Counted from the stretch's first letter, positions 1 to 25,122 are shown. The stretch: DNA of 25,686 nucleotides from Gammaproteobacteria bacterium (GCA_051009095.1 JBPCWX010000121.1:1-25686); one strand, 5' to 3'. Notes: generated from the letters alone by a model not told the origin. A program made the numbers and translations.

Positions 1-807
1 CTATCTATTATGCCTGACAACTGCGTTGACCTTATCATCACATCACCACCATATGCCGAGCGGCGCCTGCACACTTATGGCGGCGTCTCCGCCGAGCGTT
101 ATGCAGAATGGTTTTTGCCTCTGTCCGACCAGTTTTTGCGCGTCCTCAAACCCACCGGAACTTTTATCCTCAACATCAAAGAACACGCCGAAAAAGGCGA
201 AAGAAGCGTTTATGTTTTAGAGCTTATTCTTGCCCTGCGAAAACAGGGCTGGCGGTGGACAGAAGAATTTATCTGGCACAAAAAAAACGCCTATCCCGGC
301 TGGTGGCCCAATCGCTTTCGCGACGCCTGGGAACGGCTATTGCAATTTAACAAAAGCAAAAACTTCACCATGTACCAAGATGCCGTAAAAGTGCCGATTG
401 GCGATTGGGCAGATGGACGACTTAGAAAATTGAGCCACAATGATTCTCAAAGAAGCCGTCCCGCAACCGGCAGCGGTATGGGGCGCAATGTGTCTCGTTG
501 GGTGGGCAAAGACACCGTCAACCCAGACAACGTTTTACATCTGGCGGCAGAATGTGGCAACAAAAAACACAGCGCCGTTTTTCCTGAATCTTTGCCCTCT
601 TGGTTTATCCGTCTGTTTACCAAAGAAGGCGACATTGTTTTGGATCCTTTCATGGGCTCCGGCACTTCTGTCGCTGCCGCACATAAACTTAATCGGCATA
701 GCATCGGCATAGAAATTTTGTCTGAACATTTTGCCATTGCCAAAGAACGGCTGGAAAAAATCAATAAACCAACTAAAAGCAAACACAAAGGCAAAAAGGC
801 GGCATAA
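1..807 (+). CDS. Site-specific DNA methyltransferase, beta class (N4-cytosine or N6-adenine), 5'-truncated by the window edge
   Basis: Catalytic motif IV 'DLIITSPPY' lies near the N-terminus and SAM-binding motif I 'VLDPFMGSGTS' near the C-terminus (beta order). 'HSAVFP' is also present. The frame is open from base 1 (CTA TCT ATT ATG), and the ATG at 10 sits just before motif IV, so the true start is probably upstream. Confidence 0.9.
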   Translation, partial: LSIMPDNCVDLIITSPPYAERRLHTYGGVSAERYAEWFLPLSDQFLRVLKPTGTFILNIKEHAEKGERSVYVLELILALRKQGWRWTEEFIWHKKNAYPGWWPNRFRDAWERLLQFNKSKNFTMYQDAVKVPIGDWADGRLRKLSHNDSQRSRPATGSGMGRNVSRWVGKDTVNPDNVLHLAAECGNKKHSAVFPESLPSWFIRLFTKEGDIVLDPFMGSGTSVAAAHKLNRHSIGIEILSEHFAIAKERLEKINKPTKSKHKGKKAA

Positions 808-1571
808 TGAATAGCGTGCAGTTAGAAAAAATACAGCAATATATATCTGATAACATTCAAGCATTTCACACCCGCCGCTTGGAAAAATTATCAGAATTTA
901 AACTCGATAAAACGCTCAAGCGGGTTAATCCCTATTTATATCGCGCGAAGAATCTGGAACTCGCACATGATTTTGTAAAGTATTTTACCGATAATTATTT
1001 GGCCTTGCAGGAACAGACTATTTTTGGTATGTTTTTGGAAGAACTTGCATTATTCGTCGGTGATGAATTGTGTGGCGGCAAAAAATCGGGCATCGAAGGC
1101 GTAGATTTGGAATTTTCCCGCGATAAAATTCATTATCTTGTGTCTATTAAATCCGGCACTAACTGGGGCAATTCCAGCGAAGTAAAAAAGCAGCGTGAAT
1201 GTTTTCACAAAGCCGCGCGGGTGATTCGCCAAAGCAAAAGTGTCAAGGCGGTAGCCGCTGTCTTGGGTTGCTGCTATGGTCGTGAATCGGTTGCAGACAA
1301 AGGCGACTACATTAAATTATGCGGGCAATCTTTTTGGCAATTTTTATCCAGCCATAAGAGCTTGTATTTGGATATTATTGAGCCACTGGGCCATCAGGCC
1401 AAGCAAAGAAATCACGCTTTTCATAAAGAATACACCGCTTTGCTTAATCAATCCACACAAAAATTTATGAATGACTTCTGCATAAACGGAAAAATTGATT
1501 GGAAAAAACTGACGGAATTTAGCTCCGCCAACCCAACTGCGATAACTCAAAAAAGCAAACCCCATGGATAA
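807..1571 (+). CDS. Type II restriction endonuclease, PmeII/EcoO109I-like PD-(D/E)XK family
   Basis: TAATG overlap with the MTase stop. Motifs 'NPYLY', 'QTIFGMFLEE', 'GVDLEF...VSIKSG', 'GQSFWQFL' and 'IDWKKL' resemble the EcoO109I/PmeII-type family as I recall it. AT-rich. Confidence 0.75.
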   Translation: MNSVQLEKIQQYISDNIQAFHTRRLEKLSEFKLDKTLKRVNPYLYRAKNLELAHDFVKYFTDNYLALQEQTIFGMFLEELALFVGDELCGGKKSGIEGVDLEFSRDKIHYLVSIKSGTNWGNSSEVKKQRECFHKAARVIRQSKSVKAVAAVLGCCYGRESVADKGDYIKLCGQSFWQFLSSHKSLYLDIIEPLGHQAKQRNHAFHKEYTALLNQSTQKFMNDFCINGKIDWKKLTEFSSANPTAITQKSKPHG

Positions 1572-7990: not shown

Positions 7991-9076
7991 ATGAGGATTG
8001 TTCCTAACCCTACTCGCAATAGTGCCTTTTTGGGATTATGGCAGAATGACTATGAGCATTATCAAATGCCGCAGCCGCAATATTTGGGCGCCAAATACCA
8101 ACTGCTTAACTGGCTCACAAAACATATACCCATCAATGGCGGCGTTATGTTGGACGGCTTTGGCGGCTCCCAATCTGTTGCTTTTGCCATGAAAAAAATG
8201 GGGTTTGCCGTCCACACCAACGATTTTCTTAATTTTTGCCACCAAAGCGGCATCGCCTTGGTGGCAAACAAAAGCGCGATATTAAACAAAGATGATGTAG
8301 CGATGTTGTTTGCCGACAATCCCTGCCGCCGTAAAATAATGATTCGTTTCAAAAACATTTTTTTTGCCGAGTCAGAATGCGTATTGCTGGATAACTTTCG
8401 CACCAATGTTGATCAATTTTCCTGTCCACACAAACGCGCCTTAGCCTTGGCGATAATGTGCCGCAGTCTTACGCGTAAAACAATTATGGGGCATTTTGCA
8501 CATTTGCGGGCGATGGAATACGCACGCAATCCGCTTCGCGTAAAGCGCAATCCCAGCATTGCCCGCAATATCCACGACTTATTTTTAGCCTTATTGCCCC
8601 AATACAATGCCGCTGTATTTGACAACGGCCAAGACAACAAAAGTTATCACGGCAATATTTTGGAGATGCTGCCGTCATTGGCGGATGCGGATTTAGACTT
8701 AGTTTACTACGACCCGCCGTATTGCCAGAGCCACGCAGATTATCAGGCTTTTTATCATCTTTTGGAAACTTTTGTGGAAGCGTGGGAAGACAAAACATTC
8801 ATCAATGGCAATCAACGCTACCACCCTCCTCGTCCCAGCGGCTTTGACAAAGTCGGTAATGTGGAAAATTCTTTTCGCCGTTTATTCGCATTGTCAGATG
8901 ACATTCCTTATTGGCTGATTAGTTATAATGACCGCTCGACGCCGACGGTGGAAACACTGGCGCAGATGGCACGGCGGCATAAAAAAGTGCGTATAGAGGA
9001 AAAAATTTATCACACTTCCAGAGGCGGTAAAGGCTCTGTGTCTGGCAGCCGAGAATTTTTACTTATCTGTCAATGA
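7991..9076 (+). CDS. N6-adenine DNA methyltransferase, alpha class (D12/NlaIII/FokI-like)
   Basis: Motifs 'QYLGAKYQLL.WL', motif I 'DGFGGSQSV', 'TNDF', motif IV 'LVYYDPPY', 'YHLLE' and 'ISYN'. An alternative start exists at ATG 8066. Confidence 0.88.
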   Translation: MRIVPNPTRNSAFLGLWQNDYEHYQMPQPQYLGAKYQLLNWLTKHIPINGGVMLDGFGGSQSVAFAMKKMGFAVHTNDFLNFCHQSGIALVANKSAILNKDDVAMLFADNPCRRKIMIRFKNIFFAESECVLLDNFRTNVDQFSCPHKRALALAIMCRSLTRKTIMGHFAHLRAMEYARNPLRVKRNPSIARNIHDLFLALLPQYNAAVFDNGQDNKSYHGNILEMLPSLADADLDLVYYDPPYCQSHADYQAFYHLLETFVEAWEDKTFINGNQRYHPPRPSGFDKVGNVENSFRRLFALSDDIPYWLISYNDRSTPTVETLAQMARRHKKVRIEEKIYHTSRGGKGSVSGSREFLLICQ

Positions 9077-12000
9077 CTGCTCTGTTCATCATCAGTCGCT
9101 GCTCGGAATTGCTTAAGATCCTCCATTGTTTTGATGTTAATTTTTCCTGCCACTTTTTCCAACTTCTGCCGTATCTTATCCAACCACGAGGGCAATCCAC
9201 AAGTGATAAACAAAAACGCTTGAACTTCCTTTGACTGCTCCTTATCCGACAACACGGCACGAGCGAGTGCCTGATATTTAACGCATTGATATAACCCCTT
9301 TATGAGTTCGCCAGACATCACAGAAGTTTTGACTTCAACAATAACATATTCGTGTTCCGATTCAAAAACGACGTCAGCTTCGTCGTTGGTGGGAAAACCA
9401 CTCTCTATTTTAGCTACTACACTATCGGACGTAAGTCCAAATAGTTTGGGGGTTTTTGATAGTTCCTTTTTTAGCACTTTGTGTTGATCGCCTTCGCCTC
9501 CTCCACCGCCGTTCTTGATGGACGTTCCGCCCGGCTGCCTATCGTCCGGTTCACCCCCCCCTGGCGGTGTGGGTGTTAGCGGCGGCTGGGGAGGCGGTGG
9601 CGGCGGGGGAGGTGGCGGCGGCGGGGGAGGCAGTGGCGGCGGAACGCCATTTCTTTTTTCTTGCTCAACCCTTATAACTAATAAAGATTCTTCAGTTTTC
9701 CCATAATCCTCCCGCAATCTACGTAAGCACCCATCATTATTTTCCTCGTTAAGAAAATTCTCAATGTGCGGTTTATTATAAACTGAAGATTTCGACAATG
9801 ATGCAAGTGCTGCTGCCAACGCACGCACGGTGTTGTCTTTCATACTTACTTTAATAATTGAGGGCTCAGTTTCAATTTTATATTCAATTTTATAAGGGAC
9901 ATCAATATCAAAATCGGGTAACTTTTCAGATTTCAGGCATATTGATTCATATACACAAATTGTTATATCTTCAGAAAAATTACCATCATTAATAGCCTTC
10001 AAGTATAGTTTTCTATCATTATATCGTTTCTGCATCTCCTCTGTTTCACGCGACACCTCATCTTTGCACTCATACTTCGAATCCAAGTAATCGCTTAGTT
10101 CAGGCAAGTCGGATTTTTCACCTTCGGCAAGAGAACAAATAAAGATATTAATGTCTTCTTTCTCTAATAACTTGCTACGAACGACGGGAACAGCCAAATA
10201 AGATTTATCTAACCAATAATAATCGGAGTCCGCAAAATACATAAATTCACCTTTATCAGTTTTGCGGATACATGGGATTTTGAGCGAACCAGGGATAGCA
10301 CCAAAATTTTCTATGTAATGCCGATAAACTTCCTTTGTGGCTCTGGCCACTGCTCCCCTTGTCCCATCCCATCTCATATCTGCCTCATCATTAGTTTCCC
10401 TATTCTCATATAATTTCTTTATCAAATCGATAACTTCGTCTTCTACATTAGGAAGTTCTTCTTTCATGCCAAGATCTTTCATAGCGTCCCAAAACTCATA
10501 TCGTAGCCTCCCATCTTTAATTTCAATAACTTCTGGCAAAAGCCCGCCCAAACTTTTGTCCTGCGCATAAATCTCCCAAGGTTTTTTATACTCACCGCCC
10601 ATTATTCTGGACTTGCAACGAATCCATTCCAGTTGCTTTAATTGGTAAAGGGCAAGGCTATGACTGAAAAATTCAAGACGAGAACCTCGATAACAATAAA
10701 AATCTCTATGCTCCTTAGCCATTCTATGTAATCTAACTAGTATCACTGCAAACTCTTCAGACCGAATGCTCCTTATTTTCATAATAGCACTTTCGTCAAA
10801 ATAAAATTGTCGTATGTTATTTACAGAATTTAGACCCATCCTGTGCAAGTGTTGCCTGATGATGTCATTGTATTCAGGTGCCAAAGCACTAATAGATTCA
10901 TTATAATATCCTTCCATAACATACAATTTTGGTATCCGAGAAACCCCTAACCACTGAAGCAGAGGAATATATTCTTCTTTTTTAGCATCTTCTATTTTCC
11001 ATTTCTCAATAGGAAGAATAACTTTTTCCATACCATCAAATTGCTTATACCCGCCCCATTTTGATCCCGCATAGCATTCAATGGCGGGAATCCATCCTTT
11101 CTTTGTCGGCACACGAATAACCCTGCCGACTGTATTTCTCTCATCTTCTTCCCCAATTATCAAGTCATCGACCGAATTGTCCTCCAGCCACTCACTTGCC
11201 TGATGCAATATTTTTGCGCCATTATTACACCACCACTCCTGATCTTTACCCTCGCAGTGTGGCACTAAAACCTTTTCAATAAAATCTTTCTTTTCCAAAG
11301 GCACACAAGGCAATTTACTTCTATCTTTAATACCTTCAAATGCTTCCTTAAAACCGGTAGCCAAAACATCTACACGCAACCATTCTGGCCATGGCAATAG
11401 ACATTCCATTAAAATTGGACACTCGCCGTTATAACTCCGAGCCCGATTGCCCAAAAACCAAAAAGGAATTTTGCGTAAATGCTCATTAATAACAACATCA
11501 TCACTAAATTTATCAACCGCAAATTTAATGGCATTACAACAATCCCCAACACTTCCATTTTTGCAATACTTCAGTAGCCTAAAATAATCTTCCTTGTCTA
11601 TCTCTATTGCCTTTAATCCCTTTAGAATAGGATACACTTTTTTATCCTCATCCTTTTGCAATGAGCCGCACAATAAACACTCATCCTTAACTTCTGGCAT
11701 GTCCGATTTTAGCAAGTCGCCAAAATTATTTTCCCACAATTTAATTTCATTGGGTTTGCATTTACCACCCCCAAGAATCGGAACAAAATCCGTTTCCGCC
11801 ACCACTTCGGCTATGGATTGGCGCATAGTCCCAATGACACCTTCATATTCATCTTCATGTGCCTTGCCAAATGCCAACAAGCCAGTTTTAGGAGGAACAT
11901 GGCAAAGAATATCCTTTGTCATTTCTTTTATCCCCTCGCAAATATCGCCGGCATTCTCTTGCCCCTCGTCTGCCAAATGTTTCCTGTCTGCATTAATCTC

Positions 12001-12957
12001 AAATGAAGCATGAATAAGTGCGCCAATTTTGGGCAATTCCTCTTTCGATGGAAAGAAAACATGTAAAAGATTTTCGGTGTCGGTGTATGGTACTGCTTTG
12101 CCTTTATCCAACGGTAAGGCTATGGATGCGCTTATTCCTTTTCCTTCCCCAATCCACATCCATTGTTGCCAACTTTTAGATTCTTTCCGTCCGTTTTCTG
12201 TGGTAGTCAAGTCTACTTTTGATTTTTTTGCACCAAAAACACCGTCTCTTTCAAGCCGTATTTTACGCTCTATTTTTTGTGTGCCGTCTTGTATTTCAAC
12301 TTTAATACAATTCAAATGAGGGCAAAACAATAAACACTCCGCCGATAATTCCTGCAGTTGTTTTATGGTTTGCTCCCGCGCCTCAGTATCTTTAAATGGC
12401 AACCGTATAACCGTTACATACTTCTGCCCTTTTAACTCAGCAATCTCATCATCTGGTTGGCATTTATGGGGGATGCGAAAAATAGGAACCTCTTCGCCAT
12501 CGGCAATTTCCCCTATCCTTTCCCGCGTTTTGTCTTCCGAGAAACAAAAAGAAAAAGGGCCAGAGTATATTGACGGTTCTCTGGATATTTGCAATACTGA
12601 CTTAAACCCAATACCCTTCACACCTATAAGTGTAGGGGCTTTTACCGCGTCATTAGCATTTTGGAGTAATTCCAATAATAGCCGACCGCTATAATCTTGG
12701 CAAATCCTTTTTTCATGCTCCACATCCTCAGCAAGCCTGTTTTTGCTCTGATAAACGCTGAGACATTCCTGCGCAATCTCTTCTATTAAATTTAAATCAT
12801 CACCATACTCATCATTGGGAATTTCCCGCTTCCCGCTCAAATACATATAACACAAAGAAATAACACCATCACGAGTAAACGGCTCCCCCGTATTCGCAAC
12901 AATAAGCGCGCTTTCCGTAACACGAAAAAGAATGGATTGCAATTTTTGCTTTTGCAT
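9070..12957 (-). CDS. 1295-aa sacsin/NOV-like GHKL ATPase with a long central region, polyproline linker and C-terminal PD-(D/E)XK nuclease domain
   Basis: N-terminal 'DYSGRLLLELLQNANDA', 'IGVKGIGFKSV', 'IYSG..F.F' and 'T.IRLPF' are sacsin-type GHKL motifs. C-terminal 'EADVVF...VIVEVK...KGLYQCVKY' is a D...ExK nuclease core with a QxxxY helix. The ORF is uninterrupted and AT-richer than its flanks. Confidence 0.8.
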   Translation of the reverse strand: MQKQKLQSILFRVTESALIVANTGEPFTRDGVISLCYMYLSGKREIPNDEYGDDLNLIEEIAQECLSVYQSKNRLAEDVEHEKRICQDYSGRLLLELLQNANDAVKAPTLIGVKGIGFKSVLQISREPSIYSGPFSFCFSEDKTRERIGEIADGEEVPIFRIPHKCQPDDEIAELKGQKYVTVIRLPFKDTEAREQTIKQLQELSAECLLFCPHLNCIKVEIQDGTQKIERKIRLERDGVFGAKKSKVDLTTTENGRKESKSWQQWMWIGEGKGISASIALPLDKGKAVPYTDTENLLHVFFPSKEELPKIGALIHASFEINADRKHLADEGQENAGDICEGIKEMTKDILCHVPPKTGLLAFGKAHEDEYEGVIGTMRQSIAEVVAETDFVPILGGGKCKPNEIKLWENNFGDLLKSDMPEVKDECLLCGSLQKDEDKKVYPILKGLKAIEIDKEDYFRLLKYCKNGSVGDCCNAIKFAVDKFSDDVVINEHLRKIPFWFLGNRARSYNGECPILMECLLPWPEWLRVDVLATGFKEAFEGIKDRSKLPCVPLEKKDFIEKVLVPHCEGKDQEWWCNNGAKILHQASEWLEDNSVDDLIIGEEDERNTVGRVIRVPTKKGWIPAIECYAGSKWGGYKQFDGMEKVILPIEKWKIEDAKKEEYIPLLQWLGVSRIPKLYVMEGYYNESISALAPEYNDIIRQHLHRMGLNSVNNIRQFYFDESAIMKIRSIRSEEFAVILVRLHRMAKEHRDFYCYRGSRLEFFSHSLALYQLKQLEWIRCKSRIMGGEYKKPWEIYAQDKSLGGLLPEVIEIKDGRLRYEFWDAMKDLGMKEELPNVEDEVIDLIKKLYENRETNDEADMRWDGTRGAVARATKEVYRHYIENFGAIPGSLKIPCIRKTDKGEFMYFADSDYYWLDKSYLAVPVVRSKLLEKEDINIFICSLAEGEKSDLPELSDYLDSKYECKDEVSRETEEMQKRYNDRKLYLKAINDGNFSEDITICVYESICLKSEKLPDFDIDVPYKIEYKIETEPSIIKVSMKDNTVRALAAALASLSKSSVYNKPHIENFLNEENNDGCLRRLREDYGKTEESLLVIRVEQEKRNGVPPPLPPPPPPPPPPPPPPQPPLTPTPPGGGEPDDRQPGGTSIKNGGGGGEGDQHKVLKKELSKTPKLFGLTSDSVVAKIESGFPTNDEADVVFESEHEYVIVEVKTSVMSGELIKGLYQCVKYQALARAVLSDKEQSKEVQAFLFITCGLPSWLDKIRQKLEKVAGKINIKTMEDLKQFRAATDDEQSSH
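9562..9642 (-). repeat. Low-complexity CCN tract encoding PPPL-P14-QPPLTPTPP
   Basis: Read directly from the sequence: 14 consecutive Pro codons (9589-9630), built from imperfect CCTCCCCCGCCGCC(G)CCA units. Confidence 0.95.
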
Positions 12958-13407
12958 TTATCCTCCCCCCAACTTTTGCTTAACCAACTTACTCACCTCC
13001 CCCATATCCACACCAACAAGGGCGGTTTTGAGTTTAGCGATAACTTTGCCCATATCGCGCATGGACTCGGCGCCGCAGTCGGCAATGGCAGTGTCTATCG
13101 CCGCATTTATCGCTGCCTCATCAACCGGCGGCGGCAAAAAAGGCGTCAATACCGTAATCTCTTCGCGCTCACGAGTGGCCAATTCATCACGCCCCGCCTG
13201 CTCATATTGTGCCGCCGATTCTTGCCGCTGTTTAATCAGTTTTTGCACCACCGCAACCAAGCCCGCTTCATCAGCCGGCGTGCCGCTGTCAATCTCACGC
13301 GACCTAACCGCCGCCAGCAACATGCGCAACACATCTACGCGCAACCGCTCGCCCGCTTTCATGGCGGACTGTATTTCTTTTTGCAGATATGGGACGGGGG
13401 CAGCCAC
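12958..13407 (-). CDS. yqeY: GatB/YqeY domain protein
   Basis: Motifs 'AMKA....R..VLRML', 'K..KQR.ESA.QY...GR.ELA..E..EI..L..FLP' and 'DMGKV'. Lies directly downstream of rpsU. Confidence 0.92.
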   Translation of the reverse strand: MAAPVPYLQKEIQSAMKAGERLRVDVLRMLLAAVRSREIDSGTPADEAGLVAVVQKLIKQRQESAAQYEQAGRDELATREREEITVLTPFLPPPVDEAAINAAIDTAIADCGAESMRDMGKVIAKLKTALVGVDMGEVSKLVKQKLGGG

Positions 13408-22683: not shown

Positions 22684-22731
22684 CGCCCGGCACTTCGCCG
22701 GGAATTGTGGAGCAACTATGGGGGAGCAAAC

Positions 22732-25122
22732 ATGACACGACTTCTGGCACTAACATTATTGATTGGCTTTTTTGCATTTTTGCCGAGCGCATCTGCGGAC
22801 GGCGAAAACGGCTTGTTTATTATCCCCGCCGATGTACATCAATCCGCAAGTAGCGGCACGGCAATGCTAACCCTCAATGCCACCAATATTCAAGTGCGGG
22901 CAAAATGGCGGTTGGACGGCGACTCGCCTTTTGCCATCACCGATAATGGTGAACTGCGATTGACGGCGGAACTGAGCAACCCTGCCACCATAGTGGCTAC
23001 GGTTATTGTCGAAGATATGTTTAGCGAATTGAACAGCGGCTATCAAAATTTGGCGGCAACGGCATTAATCACCGTGGAATTTATGTTTGGCACCTTGCGG
23101 ATTATCAATCCGCCGGCGAGATTGCTGGCGGCTTCTGGCATGGGCGGGACCATGGCATTCCACACAAGCGGTGGTATGGGTGAGCGTATTTTTGGTATAG
23201 ATTCAGCAAGCGATTATTTTACTTTGGGCGAAACAAGCGGCATATTATCAGTGGCGGCGAGTGTGGTGGTTGGGGAATACGCAATGACCATTTGGGTGCA
23301 GGATGAGACGGCGACATTATCCATCACGGTTGTGGCGGAAGTGGGAGTACCGGAAAATTTGATTGTGGTGGGCATACCGCCATTGACCATAACGGTGGGC
23401 GATGTTTTGGCTTTGCACACACTGCAAGCAAGCGGCGGTTTGGGGACCATAACATATAAGATGCTGGGCAGTGCGGGACACTTTTTTATTGGCAAAAAAA
23501 GCGGTGTTTTGCGAGTCAATGGCGGTGCCTCAGAAGGAGTTTATATGCTGTCGGTGGAAGCGGCGGATGGAGCAATCATTCCGCAAAAGGCAACGGCAGT
23601 GGCGACGGTGGCGGTGGAAAAGAAAAAAGTAAACCCATTGATATTGAGAACGGAAGTGACCGACATATCGATAATTTTGCATGTTTTCACTTTGCAATAT
23701 GCGAATACATATGCTATTGCGGCGGGGAATGATGGTGGCCATTTTGCGATTAGCGAGATTGGCGGAACATTATGGGCTTTGGAAAATGTGCCTGAGGGGG
23801 CGTACACTCTCAGCGTAGAAATAACTTACCAATATTCTTCGGGCATTCCCCCGACTAAATTAATATCGGTGGTGGTGGTGGAAATGTCGCTTATTCCTCC
23901 GCCAATCAAAAGTGAAATTTTTGTATTTGATTACGGGGACGGGGGACTTGATTACGGGGGAGATGTGTGGTCATCGGTGGATGGTAAGTTATGGACCCTG
24001 AAAACAGCAAACGCGTCATGGTGGTTGTATCAGGGTTATCCAGTGGAATATAATGGGCGGCTGTATTTTATAAGTGGTGATGATATAGCGTCATCTGAAA
24101 ATGGCGTAAACGCAACACCGGAAACGGGAGATGCGCCCTGGCAACAGGAGCGTTATGGTTATCAGGTTGTATCGCATAATGGGCGGTTGTATATGTTGGG
24201 TGGGGATGATAGTGACGGCATTTATTACAATGATGTATGGTCATCGGTGAATGGCAGGGAGTGGACGCAGGAAACGGCAAATGCGGATTGGGCGGGGCGT
24301 GAGGATCACCAAGTCGTATCGCATAATGGGCGGTTGTATGTATTGGGCGGGCGTGGTGATTATGATGGTGATATTGCTGATCGTGATTATACTTATTACG
24401 GTGATGTGTGGTCATCAGTGGACGGCAAGTCATGGGTGCGGGTAACGTTGAGTGGGAGTTGGGCGGGGCGTTCTGGTCATCAAGCCGTGTCACACAATGG
24501 TCGGCTATATGTGTTGGGTGGTTGGTCCTGCTCGCGGCCGTCATTCTTATCAATCTCATGCGAAGATTGGGGTGAAACTTATTACAATGATGTGTGGTCA
24601 TCGGTAGACGGCAAGTCATGGACACAGGAAACATGGGGCGCGGGTTGGTCGGAGCGTTATGACCATAGAGCAGTATCGCACAATGGTCGATTGTATGTAT
24701 TGGGTGGGAATGATGAAGATTTCTTTCCTTTTTTAAATGATGTCTGGTCATCGGCAGATGGTAAAAGTTGGCGGCAAGAGACTGAGGCAGCGGGTTGGGA
24801 GGGATTTTGGGGGGGGCCTAATGTAGTGGTATTCCCGCCCAATCTGGTTTTGCACAGTGCCGACATTGAATTTAAGATTCCGAATGGGCACATAGGGATA
24901 ATCGAAACTTTTGAAGCACAGTACGGCGACGGCAATTATATCTATAGTTTACTGTCAGACATAAGCGGTTTGTCACTAAGTATCAATGGCGAATTATCAA
25001 CAGACGGCACCACAGCAACAGGTGAACACACAATCACCGTGCAAGTGGAGGACGGCGTTGGTCAAACAGCAACCTGGACCGGCAAAGTCATCATCATTTG
25101 CGCGCATTGCAAAAAGCAATAA
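22732..25122 (+). CDS. Secreted multidomain protein: signal peptide, ~4 cadherin-like/Ig-like domains, six-blade Kelch-like propeller, C-terminal cadherin-like domain
   Basis: RBS GGAG at 22723-22726 and signal peptide MTRLLALTLLIGFFAFLPSASA. ~85-aa beta-rich repeats ('YAIAAGNDGGHFAI', 'F.I...SG.L.V', 'G.Y.L.V...D'). Repeats 'VSHNGRLYVLGG...DVWSS.DG..W...W..R..H'. Confidence 0.75.
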   Translation: MTRLLALTLLIGFFAFLPSASADGENGLFIIPADVHQSASSGTAMLTLNATNIQVRAKWRLDGDSPFAITDNGELRLTAELSNPATIVATVIVEDMFSELNSGYQNLAATALITVEFMFGTLRIINPPARLLAASGMGGTMAFHTSGGMGERIFGIDSASDYFTLGETSGILSVAASVVVGEYAMTIWVQDETATLSITVVAEVGVPENLIVVGIPPLTITVGDVLALHTLQASGGLGTITYKMLGSAGHFFIGKKSGVLRVNGGASEGVYMLSVEAADGAIIPQKATAVATVAVEKKKVNPLILRTEVTDISIILHVFTLQYANTYAIAAGNDGGHFAISEIGGTLWALENVPEGAYTLSVEITYQYSSGIPPTKLISVVVVEMSLIPPPIKSEIFVFDYGDGGLDYGGDVWSSVDGKLWTLKTANASWWLYQGYPVEYNGRLYFISGDDIASSENGVNATPETGDAPWQQERYGYQVVSHNGRLYMLGGDDSDGIYYNDVWSSVNGREWTQETANADWAGREDHQVVSHNGRLYVLGGRGDYDGDIADRDYTYYGDVWSSVDGKSWVRVTLSGSWAGRSGHQAVSHNGRLYVLGGWSCSRPSFLSISCEDWGETYYNDVWSSVDGKSWTQETWGAGWSERYDHRAVSHNGRLYVLGGNDEDFFPFLNDVWSSADGKSWRQETEAAGWEGFWGGPNVVVFPPNLVLHSADIEFKIPNGHIGIIETFEAQYGDGNYIYSLLSDISGLSLSINGELSTDGTTATGEHTITVQVEDGVGQTATWTGKVIIICAHCKKQ
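24169..24835 (+). repeat. Intragenic tandem repeats of Kelch-like blades
   Basis: Near-identical 'gtatcgcataatgggcggttgtat'-type blocks start at 24169, 24316, 24487 and 24673. Unit lengths are 147, 171 and 186 nt, all multiples of 3. Confidence 0.9.

Follow-up and report, generated by a model that had tools for sequence, protein, structure and literature searches.

Transposed ATP-binding motifs in the GHL ATPase domain of a Tiamat-like protein from a gammaproteobacterial genome

Introduction

Can an ATPase of the Bergerat fold keep its catalytic site when the motifs that build the site are joined in another order along the chain? The question is raised by a gene, here called P0001, in a contig of 25,686 nucleotides (nt) from a Gammaproteobacteria bacterium (GCA_051009095.1 JBPCWX010000121.1:1-25686; the whole contig is referred to as the window), which encodes a protein resembling TmtA of the Tiamat defence family. 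The canonical order of the Bergerat motifs is I (N box), II (G1 box), III (G2 box), IV, and to our knowledge the fold has always been described with this one order, whether in gyrase, Hsp90, MutL, histidine kinases, MORC or sacsin. A first reading of the window, made from the sequence alone (the sequence-only reading), had claimed that the order in the segment 12595-12957 is II-I-III in one reading frame, and had proposed either a naturally rewired ATPase fold, possibly derived from a tandem duplication, or a split remnant. Tiamat proteins are built of a GHL ATPase, a variable middle region and a PD-(D/E)xK nuclease, and Tiamat of B. cereus hydrolyses ATP and cleaves single-stranded DNA (bioRxiv 10.64898/2026.09.30.754977). 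The analysis below leads us to conclude that the P0001 product is very probably a Tiamat-like defence protein whose GHL ATPase carries an evolutionarily fixed, non-circular permutation, with a predicted canonical fold, a presumed ATP-driven mode of action and, as its likeliest history, a single origin.

Results

Motif order in the ATPase domain

The segment 12595-12957 encodes, on its minus strand, amino acids (aa) 1-121 of the 1295-aa P0001 open reading frame (ORF); the plus strand is interrupted by stops throughout. The motifs lie where the sequence-only reading had put them, with FRVTESALIVANTGEPFTRDGVISLC...SGK at aa 11-43 (a stretch that includes LIVANTGEPF), ELLQNANDA at aa 96-104 and GVKGIGFKSV at aa 112-121. 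The G1-box block, or block II, is made up of a β-hairpin (strands E8-13 and E17-22) ending in N22-x-G24, helix H29-36 and then S41-G-K43; its ANTGEPF (aa 21-27) follows strand E17-22 and precedes the helix, as in the G1 box of GHKL proteins. ELLQNANDA carries the E-x3-N-x2-D pattern of an N box on helix H93-103, and GVKGIGF (aa 112-118) places the G-x-x-G-x-G of a G2 box at the N-terminus of a helix.

The order of these blocks was read with three sets of profiles: a hidden Markov model (HMM) of our own, built from the N-termini of 77 canonical relatives, the NCBIfam model NF047352 (80 positions), and the PADLOC TmtA profiles. Against the canonical HMM, P0001 matched in three pieces, aa 5-45 aligning with positions 72-112 (E 2.7e-13), aa 58-107 with positions 19-69 (E 5.7e-15) and aa 109-164 with positions 114-173 (E 1.8e-18). 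NF047352 also aligned out of order (aa 7-45 with 17-55, aa 109-131 with 58-80), as did the PADLOC profile PDLC03964 (aa 8-44 with 69-105, aa 57-106 with 12-62), to which the canonical relative P0072 was colinear (13-112 with 12-111). The PADLOC TmtA profiles that match the N-terminus of P0001, six in number, are all canonical and all give the same inversion. The three out-of-order block matches are far beyond chance. When P0001 was un-swapped in silico (leader and N box, then block II, then the rest), it matched the canonical HMM as one end-to-end domain of 152 bits. The order II-I-III in one frame was thus confirmed by the canonical HMM, NF047352 and PDLC03964, and since the candidate for motif IV lies downstream of the G2 box, the complete order by the three sets of profiles is II-I-III-IV, not the I-II-III-IV expected of GHKL proteins. 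A second NxG block in the canonical place, named by the sequence-only reading as evidence that would overturn it, was absent from the profile alignment, the N box and the G2 box being no more than 7 residues apart.

The block corresponding to aa 58-107 is N-terminal in the canonical relatives, and profile alignment identifies the stretch of about 50 aa from the G1 block to the N box as the homologue of the leader with which the canonical proteins begin. On the same alignments, two adjacent blocks have changed places cleanly, at sharp breakpoints, and the domain as a whole has not been circularly permuted.

The out-of-order blocks account for the low scores given to P0001 by standard domain models. 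The NF047352 score on the full protein was 45.7 bits against a cut-off of 50; on aa 1-260 it rose to 53.3 bits, solely as the sum of three out-of-order stretches. The Pfam model PF25794 (SACS) matched only aa 108-202 (profile positions 96-200) with 22.5 bits, below its gathering threshold of 32.8, whereas on canonical P0072 the match began at profile position 14 and scored 40.5 bits. On the permuted proteins described below, SACS matches run from about profile position 93 onward and stay below threshold.

Distribution and conservation of the permuted order

The sequence-only reading had proposed a search for homologues with the same order. Relatives were retrieved by a word-indexed search and an exhaustive HMMER search, the latter inspected for the best 150 of 1911 matches, and their block order was classified against the canonical HMM. 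Among the 261 proteins retrieved, 170 were permuted, 83 were canonical and 8 were N-terminally truncated fragments. The permuted proteins begin a median of 3 residues ahead of block II, and in them the N box and the G2 box are separated by a median of 11 aa (20 at most), compared with 46-60 aa in the canonical proteins. Identity of the permuted members to P0001 ranges from 24 to 88%, and their hosts include Latescibacterota, Gemmatimonadota (Longimicrobiales), Planctomycetota, Binatia, Nitrospirales, Alpha- and Deltaproteobacteria, Verrucomicrobiota and one Woesearchaeota metagenome-assembled genome (MAG).

Conservation was counted over 141 aligned permuted N-terminal modules, in which the mean column identity is 26%. 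G24, Q99, D103, G112, G115 and G117 were invariant; N22, F27, G31, K43, Y89, R92, E96, N100, T182, P303, H316 and R325 were at least 90% conserved, as were L97, L98 and A104 of the N box, so that the residues of the ATP site all reach at least 90%. The canonical alignment conserves the equivalent positions: T206, the equivalent of T182, reaches at least 90%, as do F332, P333 and T334, and R354 does not vary at all, the last four being equivalents of the motifs at aa 301-327. The proposal of a naturally rewired ATPase fold is supported by these results, the swap being fixed in a large clade with the catalytic residues kept and the predicted fold (see below) being that of a normal GHL ATPase. 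The proposal of a split remnant found no support; the gene is one intact frame and all of its blocks are under conservation.

In a FastTree phylogeny of the colinear part (the G2 box plus 330 aa), all 141 permuted sequences fell within one clade of 154 tips (support 0.96). The main permuted clade had 117 tips (support 0.97) and a second had 18 (support 0.98). An approximately unbiased (AU) test on 63 rows did not reject monophyly of the permuted proteins (log-likelihood difference 15.8, p-AU 0.155), and on the tree a single origin would be the economical reading.

Predicted structure and dimer

An AlphaFold 2 (AF2) model of aa 1-460, made with the alignment of 141 sequences, had a mean predicted local distance difference test (pLDDT) score of 92.8 and a predicted template modelling (pTM) score of 0.90; the canonical control, P0072 aa 1-462 with an 82-sequence alignment, had a pLDDT of 90.3. 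The two models contain the same secondary-structure elements in swapped order. In P0001 the hairpin E8-13/E17-22 and H29-36 come first, followed by H54-68 and H72-88, then H93-103, then H115-123 of the G2 box; in P0072 the leader helices H12-27 and H29-45 and the N-box helix H50-61 precede the hairpin E69-75/E79-84 and H91-98, which are followed by H117-124 of the G2 box. The sequence-only reading had named a model in which aa 11-43 fails to complete the ATP pocket as evidence against it; the P0001 model places aa 8-36 inside the domain with a pLDDT of 94-98, and the lowest pLDDT of the N-terminus, about 70, falls in the linker at aa 46-57. The models thus predict a canonical three-dimensional fold and ATP pocket, with each block in its usual place.

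Foldseek and VIA matched the P0001 model to Hsp90, GyrB, MORC, SMCHD1 and sacsin SR1. In the comparison with sacsin SR1 (PDB 5V44), the order of which is I-II-III, the P0001 model aligned from just past the sacsin N-box helix, with exactly 35 residues lost (the leader and the N-box helix); it aligns either from sacsin residue 125 onward or through the N-box helix, never both together. A sequence search of the PDB was set aside as evidence for the fold; its sacsin matches were insignificant (E 0.23-0.29) and served just to locate the sacsin motifs.

A homodimer prediction for aa 1-340 with ATP and Mg scored 0.64, against 0.00 for the best control. In the calibration, 21 of 30 proteins with structures solved as homodimers attained that mark, and none of the 23 with single-chain structures did; likeness may be all that the pass reflects, as the job included small molecules, which the calibration did not, and GHL dimers are present in the PDB. 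The confident part of the predicted interface takes in the last residues of block II, the linker and the leader helices (aa 33, 37-40, 46-48, 64-84 and 155). Residues 64-84, which make up most of it, are internal in P0001.

Assembly check and strain variation

Local misassembly had been named at the outset as a possible source of the unusual order. Logan contigs from three studies (a cave metagenome, a sponge metagenome and "organism A") were examined over 12300-13200, and no joints were reported across the junctions. One contig of the third study covers 12454-12910, and with it the G2 box, the N box, the leader and most of block II, and the best-matching run contributed two contigs without differences, at 12515-12676 and 12659-12880. 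Since this run may be the source sample itself, the conservation across the clade is the stronger argument against an artefact. The 88%-identical orthologue, P0002, has the same permuted order.

The contigs also revealed strain variation. Runs X2 and X4 contain variants with a 6-nt insertion at 12636, by which the spacer from the N box to the G2 box gains two residues, in keeping with the longer spacer of P0002-P0009; this marks the new junction as the place where length varies. One contig of the sponge-metagenome run X3 matches yqeY, the gene upstream of P0001, and past 12965 runs into 255 nt of unrelated AT-rich sequence, which suggests strains with different or no cargo at this insertion point.

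Putative C-terminal effector

Besides PDLC03964 (Table 1), seven further PADLOC TmtA models matched P0001 (E 2.9e-41 to 4.9e-08). Ahead of the C-terminal domain, 27 residues of poly-proline and then 25 Gly-rich residues form a tether whose length and low complexity are unusual in a bacterial protein. Beyond it P0001 gave weak Cas4 matches (TIGR00372, E 0.005, and PADLOC Cas4), and the C-termini of close orthologues gave weak PDDEXK_1, Tox-REase-9 and AHJR-like matches. Pfam found no NOV_C domain (PF13020/DUF3883) in P0001 or its close orthologues, and BLASTP found no similarity between the P0001 C-terminus and the NOV_C region of the clade member P0015; many other members of the permuted clade carry NOV_C. 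Taken together, the D...EVK...QxxxY motifs and the weak Cas4- and PDDEXK-type matches point to an effector of the restriction-endonuclease fold that is not filed as NOV_C. It looks like an effector swap inside the permuted clade, the subclade P0001-P0009 having a different PD-(D/E)xK-type domain (9178-9390, minus strand, in the window) instead of NOV_C.

Locus and neighbourhood

P0001 occupies an AT-rich islet, which also includes an adenine methyltransferase gene, with gyrA on one side and yqeY-rpsU on the other; the GC content changes from 0.57 to 0.42 at the yqeY/P0001 boundary. The source genome is a MAG (82% complete, 303 contigs) with one copy of the gene, and no copy was found in 40 genomes of its relatives. 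The islet, the single copy and its absence from these relatives together fit horizontal acquisition. The stop codon of yqeY abuts the P0001 ATG at 12957, and the yqeY ORF is in the same frame, with one stop between. Read-through from this ORF (12958-13407), which could have supplied a hidden canonical N box, was ruled out, the ORF being a GC-rich YqeY gene that follows rpsU.

The methyltransferase gene overlaps P0001 tail-to-tail by 7 nt (9070-9076). The pairing is kept at P0002 with a gap of 18 nt, in the same synteny (yqeY, Tiamat-like gene, methyltransferase, gyrA). As a conserved partner of the permuted clade the methyltransferase was rejected, because it stands only beside this 88% orthologue and at none of the other 79 loci. 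A Pfam scan of the window proteins found no helicase among the neighbours of P0001.

Two further observations concern the rest of the window. A complete type II restriction-modification pair lies in a lower-GC stretch at 10-1571 (plus strand), an N6/N4 DNA methylase (PF01555, E 4e-43) being followed by an EcoO109I-family endonuclease (PF14511, E 7e-75), and 22705-25122 (plus strand) encodes an 805-aa protein with cadherin-like and Kelch β-propeller repeats, unrelated to the permutation.

Table 1. Features of the P0001 gene and its neighbours, in window coordinates
Feature	Position	Strand	Basis or remark
Block II (G1-box block), aa 5-45, moved to N-terminus	12823..12945	-	canonical HMM 72-112, NF047352 17-55, PDLC03964 69-105
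Variable linker, block II to leader, aa 46-57	12787..12822	-	unmatched by canonical HMM; length varies in clade alignment
Leader helices H54-68, H72-88 and N-box helix H93-103, aa 58-107	12637..12786	-	canonical HMM 19-69, PDLC03964 12-62
N box ELLQNANDA, aa 96-104 (E96 putative general base, N100 putative Mg2+ ligand)	12646..12672	-	
G2 box GVKGIGFKS, aa 112-120, 7 residues past N box	12598..12624	-	
Motif IV candidate YVTVIRLPF, aa 180-188	12394..12420	-	T182 conservation; motif IV identity inferred
Transducer-like motifs FFPSKE ... HASF ... NADRKH, aa 301-327	11977..12057	-	R325 candidate gamma-phosphate sensor, role inferred
GHL ATPase and transducer-like module, aa 1-460	11578..12957	-	AF2 model; Foldseek and VIA matches
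Whole P0001 gene, 1295-aa Tiamat (TmtA)-like protein	9070..12957	-	ORF list, translation, PADLOC TmtA PDLC03964 E 1.1e-68
Poly-proline (aa 1106-1132) and Gly-rich (aa 1133-1157) tether before C-terminal domain	9487..9642	-	direct reading
PD-(D/E)xK-type motifs, D...EVK aa 1192-1210, QxxxY aa 1224-1228	9274..9384	-	weak matches
D12-class N6-adenine DNA methyltransferase, convergent	7991..9076	+	Pfam PF02086 E 1.6e-10
yqeY, upstream, unrelated host gene	12958..13407	-	Pfam YqeY E 2.3e-42

Discussion

The results described above lead to the following model of the P0001 ATPase. A block of about 40 residues (β-hairpin, NxG, helix and S-x-K), normally situated between the N-box helix and the G2 box, now stands at the N-terminus, with the leader and N-box helices between G1 and G2, in the sequence position of the ATP lid. 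To judge from the conserved residues, the domain would still bind and hydrolyse ATP. Block II would provide N22 and G24 for contact with adenine, and K43 as well; the N-box helix would supply E96 as the general base acting on water and N100 as the Mg2+ ligand; the phosphates would be held by G112, G115 and G117 of the G2 box, and T182 of motif IV and R325 of the transducer-like region would complete the site. Dimerisation would proceed through the leader helices, now internal, and the dimerising ATPase would, by analogy with canonical Tiamat, drive the downstream sensor region and the C-terminal PD-(D/E)xK-type nuclease.

As to the origin of the swap, tandem duplication followed by complementary loss is the standard route for such rearrangements, and it is a plausible one here. 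The likeliest course would be one ancient event, for example a tandem duplication of leader-I-II with subsequent loss of the first leader-I and the second II, followed by horizontal spread over many phyla.

Several points weigh against this interpretation. Strict monophyly of the permuted proteins was not recovered in the tree, in which 13 canonical sequences on long branches fall among the permuted groups at nodes of weak support, and, given these branches, two origins or a reversion would also be compatible with the phylogeny. No duplication intermediate (I-II-I-III or II-I-II-III) was found among the 261 proteins retrieved, and the survey of the clade extends to the best 150 of the 1911 exhaustive matches. 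The placement of block II in the pocket is deduced from alignment ranges and counts, co-evolution signals could in principle lead AF2 to impose a familiar fold, and ATP binding, hydrolysis and dimerisation are predictions.

The rival explanations were weighed against the same body of evidence. That a local misassembly, a wrong start codon or a frameshift gave rise to an apparent permutation might be suspected from the origin of the window in an incomplete, fragmented MAG and from the start of the ORF directly after the stop of an in-frame upstream ORF; however, that ORF is the unrelated yqeY gene, the few residues from the N box to the G2 box leave no room for block II, the order is common to 170 independent relatives from many assemblies, and the contigs of three studies cover the junctions without joints. 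We regard the artefact as effectively refuted. It is also unlikely that the swap broke the catalytic cycle and left a degenerate pseudo-ATPase, a nucleotide-independent scaffold or dimerisation module for the nuclease. The SACS and NF047352 scores of the full protein, both below their cut-offs, and the presence of about 70 helical residues where the ATP-lid segment would run from G1 to G2 could be taken in its favour, but the scores are low because the blocks are out of order, and the nucleotide-contacting residues are all invariant or at least 90% conserved over 141 sequences that average about 26% identity per column, in the same pattern as in the canonical clade.

Less probable still is a site assembled in trans by a three-dimensional domain swap, in which block II, on a flexible linker of 12-20 residues, would complete the pocket of the partner, so that the site would exist only in the dimer. 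The linker is indeed variable and of the lowest confidence in the N-terminus, and the predicted interface includes aa 33, 37-40 and 46-48, which lie in the last part of block II and in the linker; against this, the monomer model packs block II in cis with high confidence, and hairpin residues 8-22 are not among the interface residues. The reading that we favour, a canonical fold assembled in cis from transposed blocks, leaves room for a bolder one, which we put forward only tentatively and hold to be rather improbable: the swap would not be neutral, lid closure, catalysis and dimerisation being hard-wired in one segment, or the site being formed in trans, with gating unlike that of every GHL ATPase studied, and P0001 would represent, as far as we searched, the first natural non-circular permutation of the Bergerat fold.

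With Hsp90, MutL, GyrB, MORC and SMCHD1, P0001 has the catalytic motifs in common and is predicted to share the Bergerat fold and a transducer-like second domain, and ATP-dependent N-terminal dimerisation through leader or strap elements, which is predicted for P0001, would be shared as well. Those proteins begin with a freely ending strap, and a loop from G1 to G2 serves as their ATP lid, whereas the P0001 leader is anchored inside the chain at its two ends and occupies the sequence between G1 and G2. With leader and N-box helices instead of a lid loop, and no free N-terminal strap, the coupling of nucleotide, lid and dimerisation may differ from that in the GHL ATPases studied so far.

With Tiamat, P0001 shares the N-terminal sacsin-type GHL ATPase and its transducer-like extension, the long variable middle, the flexible tether and the C-terminal PD-(D/E)xK-type nuclease, and from the G2 box onward it is colinear with canonical TmtA (position 110 corresponding to position 110). 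It differs in having the G1-box block ahead of the leader and N box, the opposite order being found in six PADLOC TmtA profiles and 83 canonical relatives, and in the nuclease of its subclade, which does not score as NOV_C. An adenine methyltransferase neighbour is known from Tiamat loci too, in the preprint only together with a helicase, and there is no helicase beside P0001 (bioRxiv 10.64898/2026.09.30.754977). The permutation is nowhere mentioned in the Tiamat and NOV preprints, that one included. We found no literature on a circularly permuted Bergerat fold, and matches for permuted GHKL ATPases were unrelated, as judged by title and abstract; a HEPN paper considered as a precedent was discarded, since its permutations concern HEPN and not the ATPase. 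In the literature searched we found no earlier description of a fixed, non-circular block swap in a GHL ATPase of the Tiamat family.

The finding bears on how the family is surveyed. The 2026 Tiamat survey required an annotated ATPase domain. Because the Pfam and NCBIfam models score below threshold on the permuted proteins, surveys with such a requirement would probably miss the clade or file its members as lacking an ATPase, and InterPro-based curation would likewise tend to miss the ATPase, SACS being below threshold in this clade. To miss the permuted clade would distort the counts and the classification of the defence family. At the level of the protein, a large natural clade in which core blocks are transposed and the catalytic residues kept amounts to a ready-made experiment on chain connectivity, that is, on how connectivity affects ATP-lid dynamics and strap-mediated dimerisation.
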